NCBI GenBank assembly: GCA_037446635.1
Contig: JBBIIG010000009.1
Span: 1-64,000, forward strand
Source of the DNA: a bacterium
GTDB lineage: Bacteria > Zhuqueibacterota > Zhuqueibacteria > Oceanimicrobiales > Oceanimicrobiaceae
Reading direction: 5' to 3'
DNA: 64,000 nucleotides
Every line of letters starts with the position of its first letter. Within the stretch, counting starts at the first letter, position 1. Positions 6,001 through 15,000 of the stretch are shown piece by piece. Made by a program: the position numbers.

Positions 6001-9000
6001 CTTCGTTGTTGAAGCGAAAAATGCGCGCGGCCTGCTGCACTTGCGGATACTCGAGCAGCAGAACCTCCGCGGTCAAATACGAAACGCTGGCCTGCCCCTG
6101 TTTCTGACCGGTGGCGTCTTTCCAAATCGCCACACGATAAATTTGGTCCGCGTCGCGGTGGTGATCGTCATACCCAACCTCTTTGAGCACGTAAAGCAAA
6201 ATCAACATGCAGCACGCCATGCCGATGGCCAGCCCGGCGATGTTGATGAACGAGTAGGCTTTGTTCTTCCAAATGTTTCTCCCCGCGATCTTGAGATAAT
6301 TTTTAAACATGTCAGTTGTCCGTTGTTTGTTGTGAACTGTCCGTCGCGTCGTACAAAGCGTTTGTTAGCTAAGCACGATGTTATCTGCGCACTGCGTTTT
6401 TCACATTTGCCATTTGCCGTTTCCCGTTTAACGAGGAAGCCAATCAGGGCCGGCCGCAGCCAGCCCTGGTTTGGCTGTCCATTATTTATTGAGGGTCGCA
6501 CGCCGGCAATAAACTCAAAGATGAAAACAAAATGCTGACGGCTGAAAGCTATTCTCAAAATATATGCCATGTAATGCCATGTCTGTTTTTAGACTATAAA
6601 TCGACGCCGCCAGCGCCGGAGAACTATCCGCTGACATTACACTCAGTGTACGAATGCGAACAACCCCGGGGGTGTCAGACGCTGCGATGACGTGAGACGG
6701 CAAAGGGCAGACGGCAGAAGTAATTGAAGGTTATTAACTCCGCTTCTCTAAGCGAAAGTAAATCTTCCCAAGCAAGAGTTTGGGGAATGTGGTTGCTGAA
6801 AAACTCAAATTTCTTTGATAGAAAATGGAACAAAACTTCTGAAGCGCGTTAATATGAAAAACCCCTTTCACAAAATTTGCGGTTCTTTCCGAAGCCCGCC
6901 CGCGCGGACTTTGAACGATGAGCAAAAGAGATTTTTCCAAAACTGAGTTTTTCAGCAACCTGTTTTAAAAAGAATGGAGAAAACATGATCAAACTCAACC
7001 ACATCACCAAATACTACAAAACCGGCGCCGGGCTCACCTATGTGCTGCGCGACATCAACCTCGTCGTCGAAGAAGGAGAGTTCATGACCATCATGGGGCC
7101 GTCGGGCTCCGGCAAGTCCACGCTGCTGCACATCCTCGGCATGTTGGACGATGCCTCGGACGGCGAATACTTTTTTTACGATCATCCCGTGCACCAGCTC
7201 AGCGAAAAGAAACGCTCGGAGTTGCATTCCACTCACATCGGCTTTGTGTTTCAGAGCTACCATTTGATCGATGAGCTGACGGTTTACGAAAATCTCGAAA
7301 CGCCGCTGCTCTACAAAAAAATCAAAGCGGCGGAGCGCAAGGGCATCGTCTCCGATACTCTCGACCGCTTCAACATCGTCGCCAAAAAAGATTTGTTCCC
7401 CAACCAATTGTCCGGCGGACACCAGCAGCTTGTGGGCGTAGCGCGCGCCATGATCACCCATCCCAGGCTCATCCTCGCGGACGAGCCCACCGGCAATCTC
7501 CACTCAAGTCAGGGGGAAGAAATTATGGAAATGTTCAAGAAACTGAATCAGCAGGGCGCCACCATCATTCAGGTGACGCATTCGGACAAGAACGCCGCGT
7601 ACGGCAATCGCATTATCAAACTATTTGATGGGCGGATTGTGAAGGAATAGGGCTTACTTAATCAACAAACTCACCCGGCGGTTGGCCATCAATCCGCGGC
7701 GCTCCGGCGTTTCCTCCACTTTGAGGCGGGTGTCGGCGTAGCCCACCGCCATAAAGCGCTGGGCGCGGATGCCGTTGGCGAGCAGGCTGCGAATGACGCT
7801 GGACGAGCGCGCGGTGGAGAGTTCCCAGTTCGATGGGTAGAGAGAATTTTTGGCGAGCGGCACGCTGTCGGTGTGGCCCTCCACTTGAATTTTGCGCTCG
7901 CTCACGTCCGGCGCTTTCAGGATGTCCGCCAGCGCGTTCAGAATGGGAAAAGAGTTCGGTTTTAAATCCGCTTTCCCGGAATCGAACAAAATGTTGTCCT
8001 GAAAATTCACCAGCAGTCCATCCGGCGTCAACGAAACTTCCACGCTTTGCTGCAAGTTGTGCTGTTCCACCAGCTCTTTGAATTTCTTTTCGAGCTGATG
8101 CAGCGGCATGGTTTCACTTTTGGAAAAATATTCCATGATCATCTCGAACTTCACTTGATCGATTTGCGAGATGGAAAAGAACAGCACGAAGAACGCCAGC
8201 AGCAGGGTCACCATGTCGGCGTAGGACAGCAGCCAGGGCTGATCTTCTTTTTTGGTGTGATTTAATGCGGGTATCTTTATTTCCATTTTGCTTGTCGTGG
8301 TTTTGATTAGTTTGAAAACTCGAATCTCGAATCTCAAAATCCAAAACAAATCCGAAATTCAAAATATCAAATGTCGAAATGCTTGTCTTGCAGTTTTTTT
8401 CTGCACAGGTTTTAAGATGATCTTGATTTTTGTTTTTTGAATTTGCTTCGAATTTCGCATTTCGAGTTTCGAATTTCGGATTTGCCCTACCTCTGTATCA
8501 ATTCTTTCGCCGCTTTGCTGCGCATCCTTCCATTCGAGCCGGCCGCCAGCTTGTTGACTTTCTTGCGGCTGTTGGCGTTCAAATAAGCCGCCAGTTTGTC
8601 GCGGGCATAGACGTAGTTGCGGTTGTCGTACATCATCAAAATGGTTTCGAGCTGCATGGTTTCCAGCAGCAAGTTGTTTTCGGAGCGCTCGCGAATTTTT
8701 TCTGCGATGGGGACGAACACCATGTTGGCTAAAATCAAACCGTAAAAGGTCGTGGTCAGCGCTACCGCTAAACCGAGTCCTACCTGGCCGGGCTTGCTTT
8801 GCAGCGTGATGAGCATATCGATCAACCCGATCACCGTTCCCAACATTCCGAAGGCCGGCGCGATTTTCGCCATCACGCTGAACAACTGATTTTGCTTGGA
8901 CTCGCGGGTCATCTGCCAGCGAATTTGATCTTCTAAAATGGCTTGCGCTTCCGCTTTTGAATAGCCGTTGGCGAGCATCTGCACGCCGTCCTGCAAAATC

Positions 9001-12000: not shown

Positions 12001-15000
12001 TTTCAGTGGCGGCCGGCGGTAACTGGCTCATGATTTTTTGCACCGCGGCCGTGTTATCTTCGCCAAGATACGGCTCCAGCAAATCCAGCAGCGATTTTGA
12101 GATGCTGGCGATCACCACCGCCGTCTCGCGCTGGCCGGTTTCGCCGCGCTCGGAGATCCAACCGCTGAGCACTTTGGCGCTGGCGCCCGGCATCCCCACG
12201 ATCACGTCGATGGTGCGGGCTTTCAATTCTTCGGTGTGATTGACGTTATGAGCGGCGCCGTTGCCATTCGTCGGCGCCGGCAGTTTGATTTCTTTGCCCC
12301 GCAGGTCCGTCTCCGATACATTTTTCATGGGCGCGGCTGTTTTCGCCGGCGCGGTTTTTTCCGATCCTCTCAGACGACTGACGATCTTGTGCATTCCCAG
12401 CAGATAGAGCGTGATCAGCAGGGTCGCTAATCCAGCCGCGAAATAATAAGGAAACCAGTTCGACTGGGTTTCTGGCGGCAGAGTCTGCGCTGGCGTCGCC
12501 GGCGGAGGCGGGACCTCGGCCGCTTTGGGCGGATCTTCTACTTTAGGCGCGATAAAATTCGCTTTCTCCGGAAAATCCATTCCTTCGATGCGCACTTGAT
12601 CGCCGCGGCTCCCTTCGAGGTTGGCGGTGAGGTTTACAAAGCGGCGGATGAACGACCAGTCGTTTTGCGACAGACTGTTGTCCACCAACACCGTCACGCG
12701 AATCTGCGCCACCTCGTAACGGTTTTCATTGACCTGCTGCAGCAGACTAAAATCGTCTCGCGGATCCGATTTCGCTTCCGCCAGGTCTTGCGGCAGATAG
12801 GGCAGGCCGGGAAGGTTCGTCAGGTCTTTGCTAAGCAGGGCATCCGGCAGCTTGGGCAGAATTTTTCGCGGTTCCACTTTGCGCAACTGCACTTTGGCGT
12901 TAACCACGAATTTGGTTTCCGGATAATAGAGCAGCAGCGCGTTTTGCAAATTCCAGTTCAAGTTGGCTTCCATCGAGCGTTCCAGCTCGTGCATGGATTT
13001 GTCCGAGCTAAAATCTTGCGCCCGCAAAATTGGGCTCAGCGCCAGACCAGCCAGAGCTGAAACGAGCACAGTGAGATTGAAAATTGTTTTCATGGGGTGC
13101 GCTTCTTCCTTGATTTCGTTTTGCTGAATTATGATTTAATCATCGGATAGCAGGTGAGAAATCTTGAACGAAAATGATCGTCTAAAAACATCTTGCAAAA
13201 TCTAATTCCTTCTCCCCAAAAATTCTTTGACACATCACCCCAAACTTTGTATATTTCCGGCAATTCAGTAATCCCGGTCTGCGCACGCAGCCACCAATCC
13301 ATCATCCGCATTAATCAGGAGACGTGATGCTTGACGAAATCTTCATGCGCCTCGCCATCGAAAAAGCCCGCGAGGGAATGAAAAAAGGACAATCCCCATT
13401 CGGCGCCGCCGTCGTTAAAAACGGCGAGGTGATTAGCTGCGTTCATAACGTTGTGTGGCAAACCACGGACATCACCGCCCACGCGGAGGTGCATGCCATT
13501 CGCGAGGCCTGCAAAAAATTGGGGACGATTGATTTGTCGGGATGCGTGATTTACTCCACCTGCGAGCCGTGCCCCATGTGCTTCAGCGCCATTCACTGGG
13601 CGAACATTTCGAAAATTGTTTTCGGCGCGCGCATCGCCGACGCCCACGACGGCGGCTTCCGCGAGCTGACCATCTCCAACGAGCAGATGAAAAAATTGGG
13701 CGGCAGTCCGGTGGAGATCGTCGCGGGATTTTTGAAAGAAGAAAATGTCGCCCTATTCGAAGAGTGGCGGAGTTTGGAAAACCGAAGAGTCTATTGAAAA
13801 CGAATGTTCCTGTTTGGCGTCACCGGCGGCATCGGCTGCGGCAAAAGCGCCGTGTGCCGATTTTTGAAAAAGCATGCCGTCGCGATCATCGCAGCGGATC
13901 CGCTGGCTAAAGATCTCACCAACCGCTTGCCGGAGATTCGCGCCGCCCTCACCGCCGAATTTGGCGGCCAGGTTTATACCGCCGCGGGAGGGTTGAACGT
14001 TAGAAAACTCAGTCAATTGGTTTTTTCCGACGCCGCCGCCCGCCGGCGCGTCAATCAAATTATTCATCCCCACGTGCTGCGGGAGATCAAAAAGCAGGCG
14101 CAGCGATTGGCAGCGCAGGGCAACAAACTCGTGGGCGTGGAAGCCGCGCTGATTTTTGAATCTGAAATGAATCACACCCTGGACGCCGTGGTGGTGGTAA
14201 GCGCCCCCCTCGAAAAACGCATCGAATGGATTCGCAAACGGGACAATTTGTCCCGGGAAGAAATCCTCAAGCGCATCCAATCGCAAATGCCGCTGGCGGA
14301 AAAAATTCAGCTCGCCGACTACGTTATCGAAAACGACGGTTCCCTTCACGATTTAAGCGCCAAAGTGGATGAGTTGTATTTATGGTTGATTGAAAAGTTG
14401 TAGCCATCTCTTTTCAAAAATCCGTGAAAAACAAACCTGCCCTCAAAGCGCTGGTCTTTTTCGGCGCCGGTTTGGTTGCCGGCAGATTTTTTGATCCGCC
14501 GGTTGCCGTCGTGCTGTTTGTGAGCACCGTTCCCGCGGCGCTGGCGTTCGCCTGCTGGTACGCCGATAAACGTCCGGCGCTGTTGAGTATCTCTCTTGCT
14601 GCGGCGTTGGCGCTGGCCGGGCTGGTTCGATATGAATTGGTCACCTCCTATTTCTCTCCCGATCACATCTCCCATTTTATGAATCACGACGGCATCGTGG
14701 CAGTGCGGGGAATCGTGGCGGGGTATCCGGAACGGCGGCTTGAAAAAGTTAATTTTACTTTGTCCGCTCACGAGATCTATTTTAAAGAAAGAGTCTGGCC
14801 AACGCACGGCAAGATTTTAATCAGCCTGGTGGAACTGGATACTCTGTTCGAATACGGCGACGAGCTGGTGGTGCGCGGCAAGCTGCGCCAGCCGAAAGAT
14901 CGCCGCAACCCCGGCGAGTTCGATTACCGCGAATTTTTGCTGGCGCAGGGCATTCACGGCAGCGTGATGATTTATCACGCCGCGCAGATCAAAAAGCTCT

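Follow-up and report, generated by a model that had tools for sequence, protein, structure and literature searches.

The window analysed here, positions 1 to 64,000 of contig JBBIIG010000009.1, belongs to genome assembly GCA_037446635.1 (G000), which is ~97% complete. It contains a five-gene operon, hereafter the module, in which a rotor gene is followed by genes encoding an outer-membrane barrel protein, a TPR lipoprotein, MotA and MotB. All five open reading frames lie on the minus strand, where an earlier note on this DNA had placed them. The genes and the parts of the rotor protein are as follows:

11267..13093, minus strand: rotor gene (P0001, g01135), 608 aa, encoding a signal peptide, FliF RBM3, a Pro-rich linker, a transmembrane (TM) helix, a linker, FliF_C-like helices and FliG N/M/C
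13019..13093, minus strand: probable cleaved signal peptide, residues 1-25 (hydropathy and a conserved AQ-type junction)
12569..13003, minus strand: RBM3 (S-ring) domain, residues 31-175 (structure comparison and profile match)
12800..12814, minus strand: LPGLP motif, residues 94-98, a loop at the collar position, present in 159/161 module members
12380..12454, minus strand: single TM helix, residues ~214-238 (model and sequence)
12146..12259, minus strand: putative FliF C-terminal-like helices, residues 279-316, continuing in frame into FliG_N (position and motif)
11273..12142, minus strand: full FliG, residues 318-607 (structure comparison)
10148..11251, minus strand: outer-membrane protein P0002, 367 aa, with a signal peptide, a TolB-N/LpoB/PelC-like periplasmic domain (29-170) and an 8-stranded beta-barrel (176-367) ending in Phe
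9324..9989, minus strand: TPR lipoprotein P0003, 221 aa, with an invariant Cys33 (Pfam TPR and conservation)
8487..9314, minus strand: MotA (P0004) of the flagellar type (matches solved stators over its full length)
7654..8349, minus strand: MotB (P0005), with plug, essential Asp and OmpA-like wall-binding domain (Pfam and alignment); probable start at 8286

The Pfam matches of the rotor protein to FliG_M (403-474) and FliG_C (506-602), and the presence of PF08345 on 11/37 homologues, are as reported earlier. In P0001 itself, YscJ_FliF_C is matched below threshold at 119-174 (E 7e-5), and PF01514 gave no match. The earlier note had described a ~190-aa FliF-type periplasmic ring between a signal/TM helix and a second TM helix. 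The FliF-type ring fold stands, but it spans only residues 31-175 and corresponds to RBM3 alone. Its model aligns with Salmonella FliF 232-438 with a VIA Z of 13.8 (rmsd 2.3 Å, 99 residues), the Z values for SpoIIIAG (9.0), EscJ and PrgK being lower (9.0-9.2), and the region matches same-family FliF in a profile comparison (E 3e-4, probability 40%). It is followed by the Pro-rich linker (residues ~180-212), which is modelled with low confidence. The second TM helix also stands, but residues 25-26 are AQ, GQ, AE or SQ in most module members, so that the first 25 residues are probably cleaved off as a signal peptide, leaving one TM helix. In the model only residues 26-30 separate this signal peptide from RBM3, so TM1, RBM1 and RBM2 of FliF are missing. 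RBM3, TM2 and the C-terminal FliG-binding segment are present, the last being assigned by its position and by the conserved P302 and W312. The insertion at the beta-collar position of RBM3 is mostly of low confidence in the model; its LPGLP loop may be a torque-transmitting or partner-binding peptide.

All three FliG domains (N, M and C) are present. The model of residues 318-607 aligns with FliG 4-319 (VIA Z 15.6 over 278 residues, flexible, with an rmsd of 14.7), and FliG_C alone gives a Z of 12.7 with an rmsd of 1.9 Å. The TIGR00207 score of 70 is far under the cut-off of 227. Whereas the linker glycine, the F-x-F motif and the C-terminal torque domain are retained across phyla, the EHPQ motif, which is the docking site for FliM, is replaced by PLKT; its histidine is found in 13/13 flagellar FliGs and is not among the residues listed for any module group. 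Similarly, the acidic pair of the torque helix is replaced by A576/S577. Position 577 is S in 18/18 KSB1 members, against E or D in 13/13 flagellar FliGs, and the acidic pair is retained in the Balneolales and gamma-type members.

The structure model of P0002 (pLDDT 89.6) matches the OprF barrel (Z 13.9) and LpoB (Z 11.4) by VIA, and the top Foldseek match of its periplasmic domain is TolB (E 4e-6). P0002 is found in 21/24 carriers of the fusion in the class; the 101 non-carriers yielded one weak match.

The stator genes carry the Pfam domains MotA_ExbB (P0004) and MotB_plug plus OmpA (P0005), and their best NCBIfam matches are MotP/PomA and MotD/MotS. Relatives of MotB align from residue 22, so its start is probably the ATG at 8286. 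The A subunit of FIT stators has an expanded cytoplasmic torque interface of four or more helices, and their B subunit has a plug, an OmpA-type wall-binding domain and an essential Asp (PMC12505986). MotB has all three B-subunit features, with the Asp conserved in 140/140 module members. P0004 aligns full-length and nearly gap-free with solved MotA/PomA, its interface charges being lost. The earlier note called the stator proton-driven, which is doubtful. According to PMC10374538, three threonines of PomA are tied to Na+ selectivity; this triad (PomA T158, T185 and T186) is retained in P0004 as T160/T188/T189 and in 19/19 KSB1 module MotAs, and the flagellar MotAs from these lineages, eight in number, have it as well. 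The module stators of KSB1 are thus probably Na+-driven. The residues of P0004 that match PomA R88, E96, D114 and R232 are uncharged, and PMC10374538 describes R88, E96 and D114 as indispensable for flagellar motility. The electrostatic torque interface of the classical type is lost in KSB1 on both sides, in the MotA charges and in the FliG acidic pair. A neutral FliG577 goes with a neutral MotA87 in 30/30 loci and an acidic 577 with a basic 87 in 95/108 loci, a covariation that rests on only two clades, KSB1 and Fibrobacteria. The lost charges, together with the indispensability of the PomA residues, count against a motor; the covariation counts for one.

Searches of G000 with FHIPEP, Flagellin_N, FliMN_C and CheW gave no matches, while the controls did. 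Likewise, when the flagellar clusters of two genomes from the same family served as tblastn queries, none of their structural flagellar genes had an orthologue in G000; the matches were of paralogue type only (e.g., the F1 ATPase for a FliI-like ORF, and MotA of the module itself). The export gate (FlhA, FlhB, FliP/Q/R), rod, hook, L/P rings and flagellin are therefore absent from this 97%-complete genome, and no switch protein was matched by FliMN_C, in agreement with the earlier claim that G000 has no other structural flagellar gene. The fusion counts were also reproduced: at E<=1e-40, the gene is present in 24/125 genomes of the class and 12/20 of the family. The description of the carriers as non-flagellated FCB bacteria could not be upheld. 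Most named carriers are FCB bacteria, but FlhA is present in 15/24 class carriers (missing in 9/24), and the module also occurs on gammaproteobacterial-type contigs. A second FliG-type match (~340 aa), or a fragment of one, is likewise present in 15/24 class carriers. The same-genus genome G012 encodes the module MotA/MotB alongside a flagellar-type MotA, FlhA and flagellin, and G000 has probably lost its flagellum recently. Because 15/24 class carriers have FlhA, the module is a second, separate motor and not a substitute for the flagellum.

The complete gene order is found in 18/20 KSB1 regions and in 55/65 Fibrobacterota/Balneolales-type loci, nine of the others being cut by contig ends and one lacking adjacent mot genes. 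All five genes are present in another order in 30/51 metagenome loci, and the remaining 21 show contiguous parts on short contigs. In one carrier (G076) the fusion stands by itself, MotA and P0002 both being unmatched there, which counts against a motor. Carriers outside the class belong to Fibrobacterota, Balneolales (including two cultured isolates) and the gammaproteobacterial-type contigs. Among 29 carriers other than those of the class, FlhA is present in 16 and missing in 13. The FlhA-negative ones include seven chromosome-level records and two isolates, and no flagellin was found in the 5/5 tested. No locus read has flagellar neighbours. Module and flagellar FliGs lie on opposite sides of a long branch with 100/100 support, as do the MotAs (99, quick tree). 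The module is under purifying selection, with a dN/dS of 0.013-0.18 where computable in six FlhA-negative pairs. The rotor-stator set is thus an export-less one that is independent of the flagellum, as had been proposed, and the decaying remnant that the earlier note allowed for is not borne out.

In Balneolales, a DUF4402 pilus cluster has an usher–SPOR gene into which a duplicate of the module is inserted. The rotor gene directly follows 18/20 ushers picked for a TPR tail, against 0/20 picked without one. The type-B MotB of this version has SPOR domains, and in 29/29 cases its long tails correspond to the SPOR tails found on ushers without a motor. In 4/18 usher-linked loci, a shortened rotor gene stands without mot genes behind it, so that the ring can persist without the motor. 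As in chaperone-usher pili, DUF4402 subunit, chaperone-like and usher-like genes occur in the usual order, but the matches to usher and chaperone families are weak: the Usher Pfam is matched in 6/29 (best E 6e-8), PefC/AfrB usher in 4/29 and PapD_N in 2/27. DUF4402 is above cut-off in 2/7 candidate pilins scanned, and sequence profiles gave no solved relative. No motor-linked chaperone-usher system turned up when we looked for one. This evidence bears on G000 by homology only, since G000 has neither an usher nor a DUF4402 pilin. PMC5167729 lists Gracilimonas tropica, a carrier of both versions, as non-motile and reports no gliding in its phylum; both points count against movement.

With the flagellar motor core (FliF PF01514 + PF08345, FliG TIGR00207, MotA5B2/PomA5B2), the module shares RBM3, TM2, the FliF_C-FliG_N junction, FliG M/C, a flagellar-type MotA and a MotB with plug, Asp and OmpA domain. 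It differs in its single rotor polypeptide without TM1, RBM1 and RBM2, in having no export gate, rod, hook, filament, FliM/FliN or chemotaxis link, in the loss of EHPQ, in its two dedicated outer-membrane partners and in its separate phylogenetic branch. Engineered Vibrio FliFG fusions (PDB 8z4d/8z4g; PMC10941966) are also in-frame FliF-FliG chains, and they form rings; they are laboratory constructs with a whole FliF, whereas P0001 is natural, retains just the final third of FliF and comes with a stator operon of its own.

Tol-Pal/Ton systems (TolQR-TolA-TolB, ExbBD-TonB) likewise couple an inner-membrane 5:2 ion motor to outer-membrane proteins. A similar machine, in which the ring, energised by MotAB, would hold P0002 by its TolB-N-like domain or pull on it and so manage the tethering of outer membrane to wall, e.g., at division, without continuous rotation, is unlikely. 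The TolB and LpoB matches of P0002, the SPOR domains on type-B MotB (SPOR domains bind the septal wall), the lost KSB1 torque charges, the ring and lipoprotein forms without a motor and the listing of a cultured carrier as non-motile all point this way. It fits poorly with a three-domain FliG whose linker glycine, F-x-F and torque domain are kept across phyla, with the canonical charge pair of most non-KSB1 members, with a flagellar-type stator (plug and OmpA) in place of TolQR/ExbBD, and with a spread (24/125) too patchy for a core division function. Moreover, the transducer is a FliF-FliG ring protein instead of TolA/TonB, genes for which were absent from the five-gene set of the loci read, and P0002 has a barrel where TolB has a beta-propeller. 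The gliding motors of Myxococcus (AglRQS-Glt) and Bacteroidota (GldLM-GldKN) also pair an ion-driven motor with a lipoprotein and components of the outer membrane, which in the module would move surface structures. They belong to another motor class, neither has a FliG rotor, and GldM gave no match, nor did any control; AglRS has been placed among the non-flagellar generic transporters (PMC12505986).

Ring-building-motif proteins are reused outside the flagellum in SpoIIIAG and the injectisome rings (EscJ/PrgK; Z 9.0-9.2); SpoIIIAG, unlike the module, comes without FliG or stator. A conduit or platform role has been proposed for SpoIIIAG, and an open RBM3 ring serving this way, with MotAB providing ion flux and not torque, would agree with the SpoIIIAG match, with a ring centre left empty without RBM1/RBM2 and with the truncated ring-only forms. 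We consider it improbable: 8-stranded barrels of the OmpA class are too narrow for protein passage, FliG and MotA covary, and FliG would be useless in a passive channel. The flagellar descent of all rotor and stator parts, FlhA in 15/24 class and 16/29 other carriers and the probable recent loss in G000 could instead indicate a flagellar accessory (spare stators or scaffold) or a remnant, an idea largely refuted already and very improbable given the intact, selected copies in FlhA-negative genomes, the deep branch apart from flagellar copies of the same genomes, the lack of flagellar neighbours, the EHPQ histidine confined to flagellar FliGs among the residues listed, and the many flagellated class genomes without the module. 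There is very little chance that the module is what powers type IX secretion in FCB lineages without GldLM, where an energiser is missing. G000 has SprA and most named carriers are FCB bacteria, with GldM unmatched as above, but SprA is in 122/125 class genomes without co-distribution with the module, which extends to gammaproteobacterial-type contigs, and no T9SS machinery gene was recognised among the recurrent neighbours (clustered, part annotated).

We therefore favour, as probable, a self-contained, flagellum-derived trans-envelope motor that has neither export apparatus nor rod nor switch and acts on an outer-membrane barrel; such a motor for outer-membrane structures seems not to have been described before. 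It most likely serves to shift or rotate some structure on the cell surface with respect to the wall, a purpose to which we give about half of that confidence. The fusion protein would be Sec-inserted, its RBM3 domains assembling a periplasmic ring and its FliG parts a one-protein C-ring; the ring of FliF itself is a 33/34-mer. Wall-anchored MotA5B2 stators, probably Na+-driven in KSB1, would turn this ring one way only, because there is no FliM/FliN/CheY input. The LPGLP loop may replace the rod contact, and force would pass via the TPR lipoprotein to the barrel, which would be the small 8-stranded P0002 in G000 and, in the Balneolales duplicate, a pilus usher that gained the same TPR domain. 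The output could be a slow movement over surfaces, or binding to particles and release from them. According to PMC10941966, FliG rings that lack FliM/FliN are unstable, which counts against a motor.

More tentatively, and with rather less than even confidence, at least four phyla may share a plug-in rotary engine, separate from the flagellum and exapted from its motor core, that turns an outer-membrane barrel complex in KSB1, Fibrobacterota, Balneolales and some Gammaproteobacteria; in Balneolales it would be spliced into a chaperone-usher system and would rotate or reposition a DUF4402 pilus. If true, motor-driven appendages would include a new kind, one that mirrors the injectisome, which kept the export half only and lost the motor, whereas here the motor is kept and export lost. 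For the harmless, cultured marine strains Gracilimonas tropica DSM 19535 and Balneola sp. EhC07, it predicts basal-body-like rings without flagella, one class of them usher-linked. The natural three-protein rotor-stator offers itself for reconstitution and engineering, and the module shows that the torque-producing half of the flagellum can be selected for by itself, a point that matters for how the flagellum was put together from modules.

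The five open reading frames of the module lie where the earlier note had placed them, on the minus strand at window positions 7654-13093, and encode the 608-aa fusion, the outer-membrane protein P0002, the lipoprotein P0003, MotA and MotB. Pfam and NCBIfam found FliG_M and FliG_C in the fusion and a TPR in the third gene product, and identified MotA and MotB as flagellar-type. The YscJ_FliF_C match in the 608-aa protein itself is sub-threshold (Pfam), and PF08345 was again counted in 11 of 37 homologues. The earlier figures for the distribution of the fusion at E<=1e-40, 24/125 genomes of the class and 12/20 of the family, were likewise reproduced; we assign the lineage to KSB1 by the source names of homologues. 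G116 and G120 are counted in the tallies out of 125 as fusion-negative, SprA-positive rows, and the conclusions are independent of both.

Comparison of an AlphaFold2 model of the fusion with solved structures delimited two clean parts. Residues 31-175 resemble FliF ~231-438, which corresponds to RBM3 only (Z 13.8, rmsd 2.3 Å, 99 residues), with SpoIIIAG, EscJ and PrgK scoring lower (Z 9.0-9.2), and residues 318-607 resemble FliG 4-319 (Z 15.6). No residues are left for TM1, RBM1 and RBM2, and the N-terminal sequence looks like a cleaved signal peptide. According to the available part of PMC11739650, RBM3 alone builds the S-ring and the RBM2 ring surrounds the export gate; the parts deleted from the fusion are therefore the very ones with a role in export. 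Between the TM and FliG_N lie two helices in which P302 and W312 are conserved, and these probably take the place of the FliG-binding tail of FliF. An LPGLP-type motif occupies the collar position of RBM3 in 159/161 family members and was not found in the FliF-sized ORFs of four KSB1 flagellar clusters; it may resemble the loop by which Salmonella FliF grips the rod.

The operon gaps at window positions 8287-8486 and 9990-10147 hold dispersed repeats, with 14 and 32 blastn matches in the genome, self included. In most KSB1 relatives the motA-motB gap is <=6 nt, so the long gaps in this genome are lineage-specific insertions. No plasmid match was found, and a scan for promoters and terminators gave chance level only.

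The complete gene order was present in 18 of the 20 KSB1 regions read (from 24 carriers), and P0002 in 21/24 carriers, with one weak match among the 101 non-carriers. A profile search returned 166 clusters at E<=1e-30, and most of the 150 listed are full length. Our sampling of genome and metagenome loci covers two clades, because broad alignments were too divergent for a pattern-based locus search. The first clade yielded 65 loci, most of them bearing the names Fibrobacterota or Balneolales; 55 are complete, contig ends truncate 9, and one has no adjacent mot genes. The second comprises 51 metagenome loci, 30 of them complete and the other 21 contiguous parts, in which the genes run P0002-P0003-fusion-motA-motB. 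Judged by eye, the neighbouring genes are of gammaproteobacterial appearance; one relative carries the name Gammaproteobacteria. Look-alikes in Bdellovibrionota, Myxococcota and Elusimicrobiota are known from Atlas clusters alone. Bdellovibrio has three motAB pairs, of which one may belong to such a module. The available part of PMC11870529 states only that motAB1/2 are missing in epibiotic predators.

The earlier note found no other flagellar gene in this genome, and this stands: FHIPEP, flagellin, FliMN_C and CheW gave no match in the 97% complete assembly while controls were positive, and the flagellar-cluster proteins of two same-family genomes have no orthologue in it. Its description of the carriers as non-flagellated does not, since FlhA is present in 15/24 class carriers. 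A genome of the same genus, G012, holds module MotA/MotB (87% identity) and, in addition, FlhA, flagellin and a MotA of the flagellar type. The nine FlhA-negative carriers are spread over four families; among them, a weak partial flagellin match occurs in G082, G092 reaches 82% completeness, and in G076 the fusion stands alone (an orphan gene at L046:1519-3393, with neither P0002 nor MotA found in the 93% complete genome). As carriers with and without FlhA both exist, the module is a second system, kept with or without a flagellum. FlhA is also absent in 13 of 29 tested genomes of first-clade loci, including seven chromosome-titled records and the isolates Gracilimonas tropica DSM 19535 and Balneola sp. 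EhC07, and flagellin was not found in any of the five FlhA-negative genomes tested; these records remove the worry over the unassembled 3%.

Where computable, dN/dS was 0.013-0.18 in six FlhA-negative pairs and similar in five FlhA-positive pairs; several pairs with saturated dS yield no ratio. In trees built from a sample of at most 8-9 members per group, a long branch with 100/100 support separates 13 flagellar FliGs from all 41 module FliGs, and 8 flagellar MotAs split from 41 module MotAs with support 99 (quick tree). The root between the flagellar and module branches is unsure, because long branches meet there. A flagellar-remnant reading of the module was rejected. The module also occurs on two contigs titled Bifidobacteriales (L066 and L113), which are probably mis-binned; L066 groups within Fibrobacteria in the tree.

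Other observations concern flagellar genes of the class. Tandem long ORFs (600-1300 aa) at G049:C70:22786-25616 and G005:C62:57-2921 align with the cytoplasmic half of FHIPEP/FlhA and with no other part of it; neither a full FlhA nor a flagellin match was found in G049. Two same-family flagellar clusters have no FliM-sized ORF between the genes labelled by eye as fliL-like and fliN-like (L117:6760-7733 and L120:3340-4430), and their flagella may have an unusual switch. The housekeeping flank that precedes the flagellar cluster in G022 is followed in the present genome by a CRISPR-Cas-like gene run (C55:247-10491, by eye).

At the rotor-stator interface, KSB1 MotA has uncharged residues at the positions of PomA R88, E96, D114 and R232, and other residues stand in for the FliG acidic pair in the fusion. 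This loss of charges is evidence against an unchanged flagellar torque mechanism. Where FliG577 is neutral (KSB1, Fibrobacteria), MotA87 is neutral in 30/30 loci, and where it is acidic, MotA87 is basic in 95/108; since two clades only are involved, this matched change hints at a co-evolved contact but falls short of statistical proof. The EHPQ motif, intact in 13/13 flagellar FliGs, is broken in all module groups, fitting the absence of a switch. The essential MotB Asp is kept in 140/140 module members. Three MotA threonines, tied to Na+ selectivity in the available part of PMC10374538, are kept in 19/19 KSB1 but just 4/14 Fibrobacteria members. A separate 247-aa MotB-like OmpA-domain ORF lies at C82:13607-14347 of the same genome (E 4e-28 against the module MotB profile).

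P0002 is modelled at high confidence (pLDDT 89.6) as a TolB-N/LpoB/PelC-like periplasmic domain with an 8-stranded outer-membrane barrel, and the lipoprotein P0003 combines an invariant Cys with a TPR domain. A complex prediction of RBM3 (26-180) with P0003 (60-221) scored 0.01 and is uninformative in either direction.

A FliG search of five genomes revealed a second, type-B fusion in Balneolales. It occurs in 27/48 genomes tested, and both trees place it as the sister of the first Balneolales version. Its locus contains, in this order, DUF4402 subunit genes, a chaperone-like gene, a ~1000-aa usher-like gene, the fusion, a TPR lipoprotein, motA and a long motB, and lacks P0002.

Balneolales type-B modules fused into DUF4402/chaperone-like/usher-like clusters, where MotB now carries the SPOR tail of the usher
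L157:9919-19962 and L158 (genome of L089)
L160
L163-L202

The usher lies directly upstream of the fusion in all 22 loci selected by fusion, and the sole tblastn match of its C-terminal TPR domain in the genome holding the window is P0003. In an independent test, 40 of the usher matches from 151 Balneolales genomes were taken. The fusion follows 18 of the 20 covering the TPR tail (one is not followed by it, one ends at a contig edge), and fusion or mot genes are near none of the 20 without it, most of which have long tails, many with SPOR matches. The long type-B MotB tails match those of non-TPR ushers over 200-340 residues in 29/29. The simplest history suggested by these sequences is that a module copy was inserted between usher and SPOR tail and has since been kept, which would have swapped a static wall anchor for a motor-containing link. 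Support for the labels usher and chaperone is weak (Pfam Usher 6/29, PefC/AfrB 4/29, PapD_N 2/27; no solved relative). In 4/18 usher-linked loci a shortened fusion stands without mot genes, and in three of these the fusion is reduced to signal, RBM3 and TM, with the lipoprotein next to it.

Motor-less derivatives: a TPR-tailed usher followed by a shortened rotor gene and a lipoprotein, with motAB missing
L187:8817-9635
L202:5273-6097
L192:8860-9888; lipoprotein with SPOR-like tail (by eye)
L184:7895-9430; protein with LysM-like N-terminal extension (by eye)

These derivatives support a structural ring-lipoprotein-usher link and show that the motor can also be shed. No such usher or pilin was found in the genome holding the window, which leaves P0002/P0003, or something unlinked, as its output. 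Upstream of the Balneolales cluster, L158:1706-11948 holds minor-pilin-like gene triplets (by eye) and invasin-domain T9SS cargo; homologues of the triplet lie at C66:13650-15846 of our genome, which also has PilT.

The module works similarly to the flagellar motor core, yet it lacks the export, axial and switch features of a flagellum. The FliF-FliG fusions found in the open literature are all engineered (available part of PMC10941966), plug and OmpA stators are treated as flagellar-specific in the accessible text of PMC12505986, and the portion of PMC13277936 at hand mentions neither fusions nor KSB1. No description of such a module was found in open-licence PMC and bioRxiv papers, subscription papers being outside this scope.

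A role as T9SS motor was rejected, an obligatory one being excluded by distribution (SprA in 122/125 genomes). The main rival is a Tol-like tethering role, which we consider rather unlikely. Movement of a surface structure is weakened as a purpose because G. tropica is listed as non-motile and gliding is reported nowhere in its phylum (available part of PMC5167729), and because broken flagellar pathways and non-motile cells are described for its family (excerpt of PMC9909488). In the mechanism that we propose, the fusion would assemble into a ring and wall-anchored MotAB would rotate it in one direction; force would reach the outer-membrane barrel by way of the LPGLP loop and the TPR domain. 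We regard it as reasonably probable that such a ring is turned by MotAB and passes force to the barrel, and moving a surface structure is the purpose that we prefer for the module.
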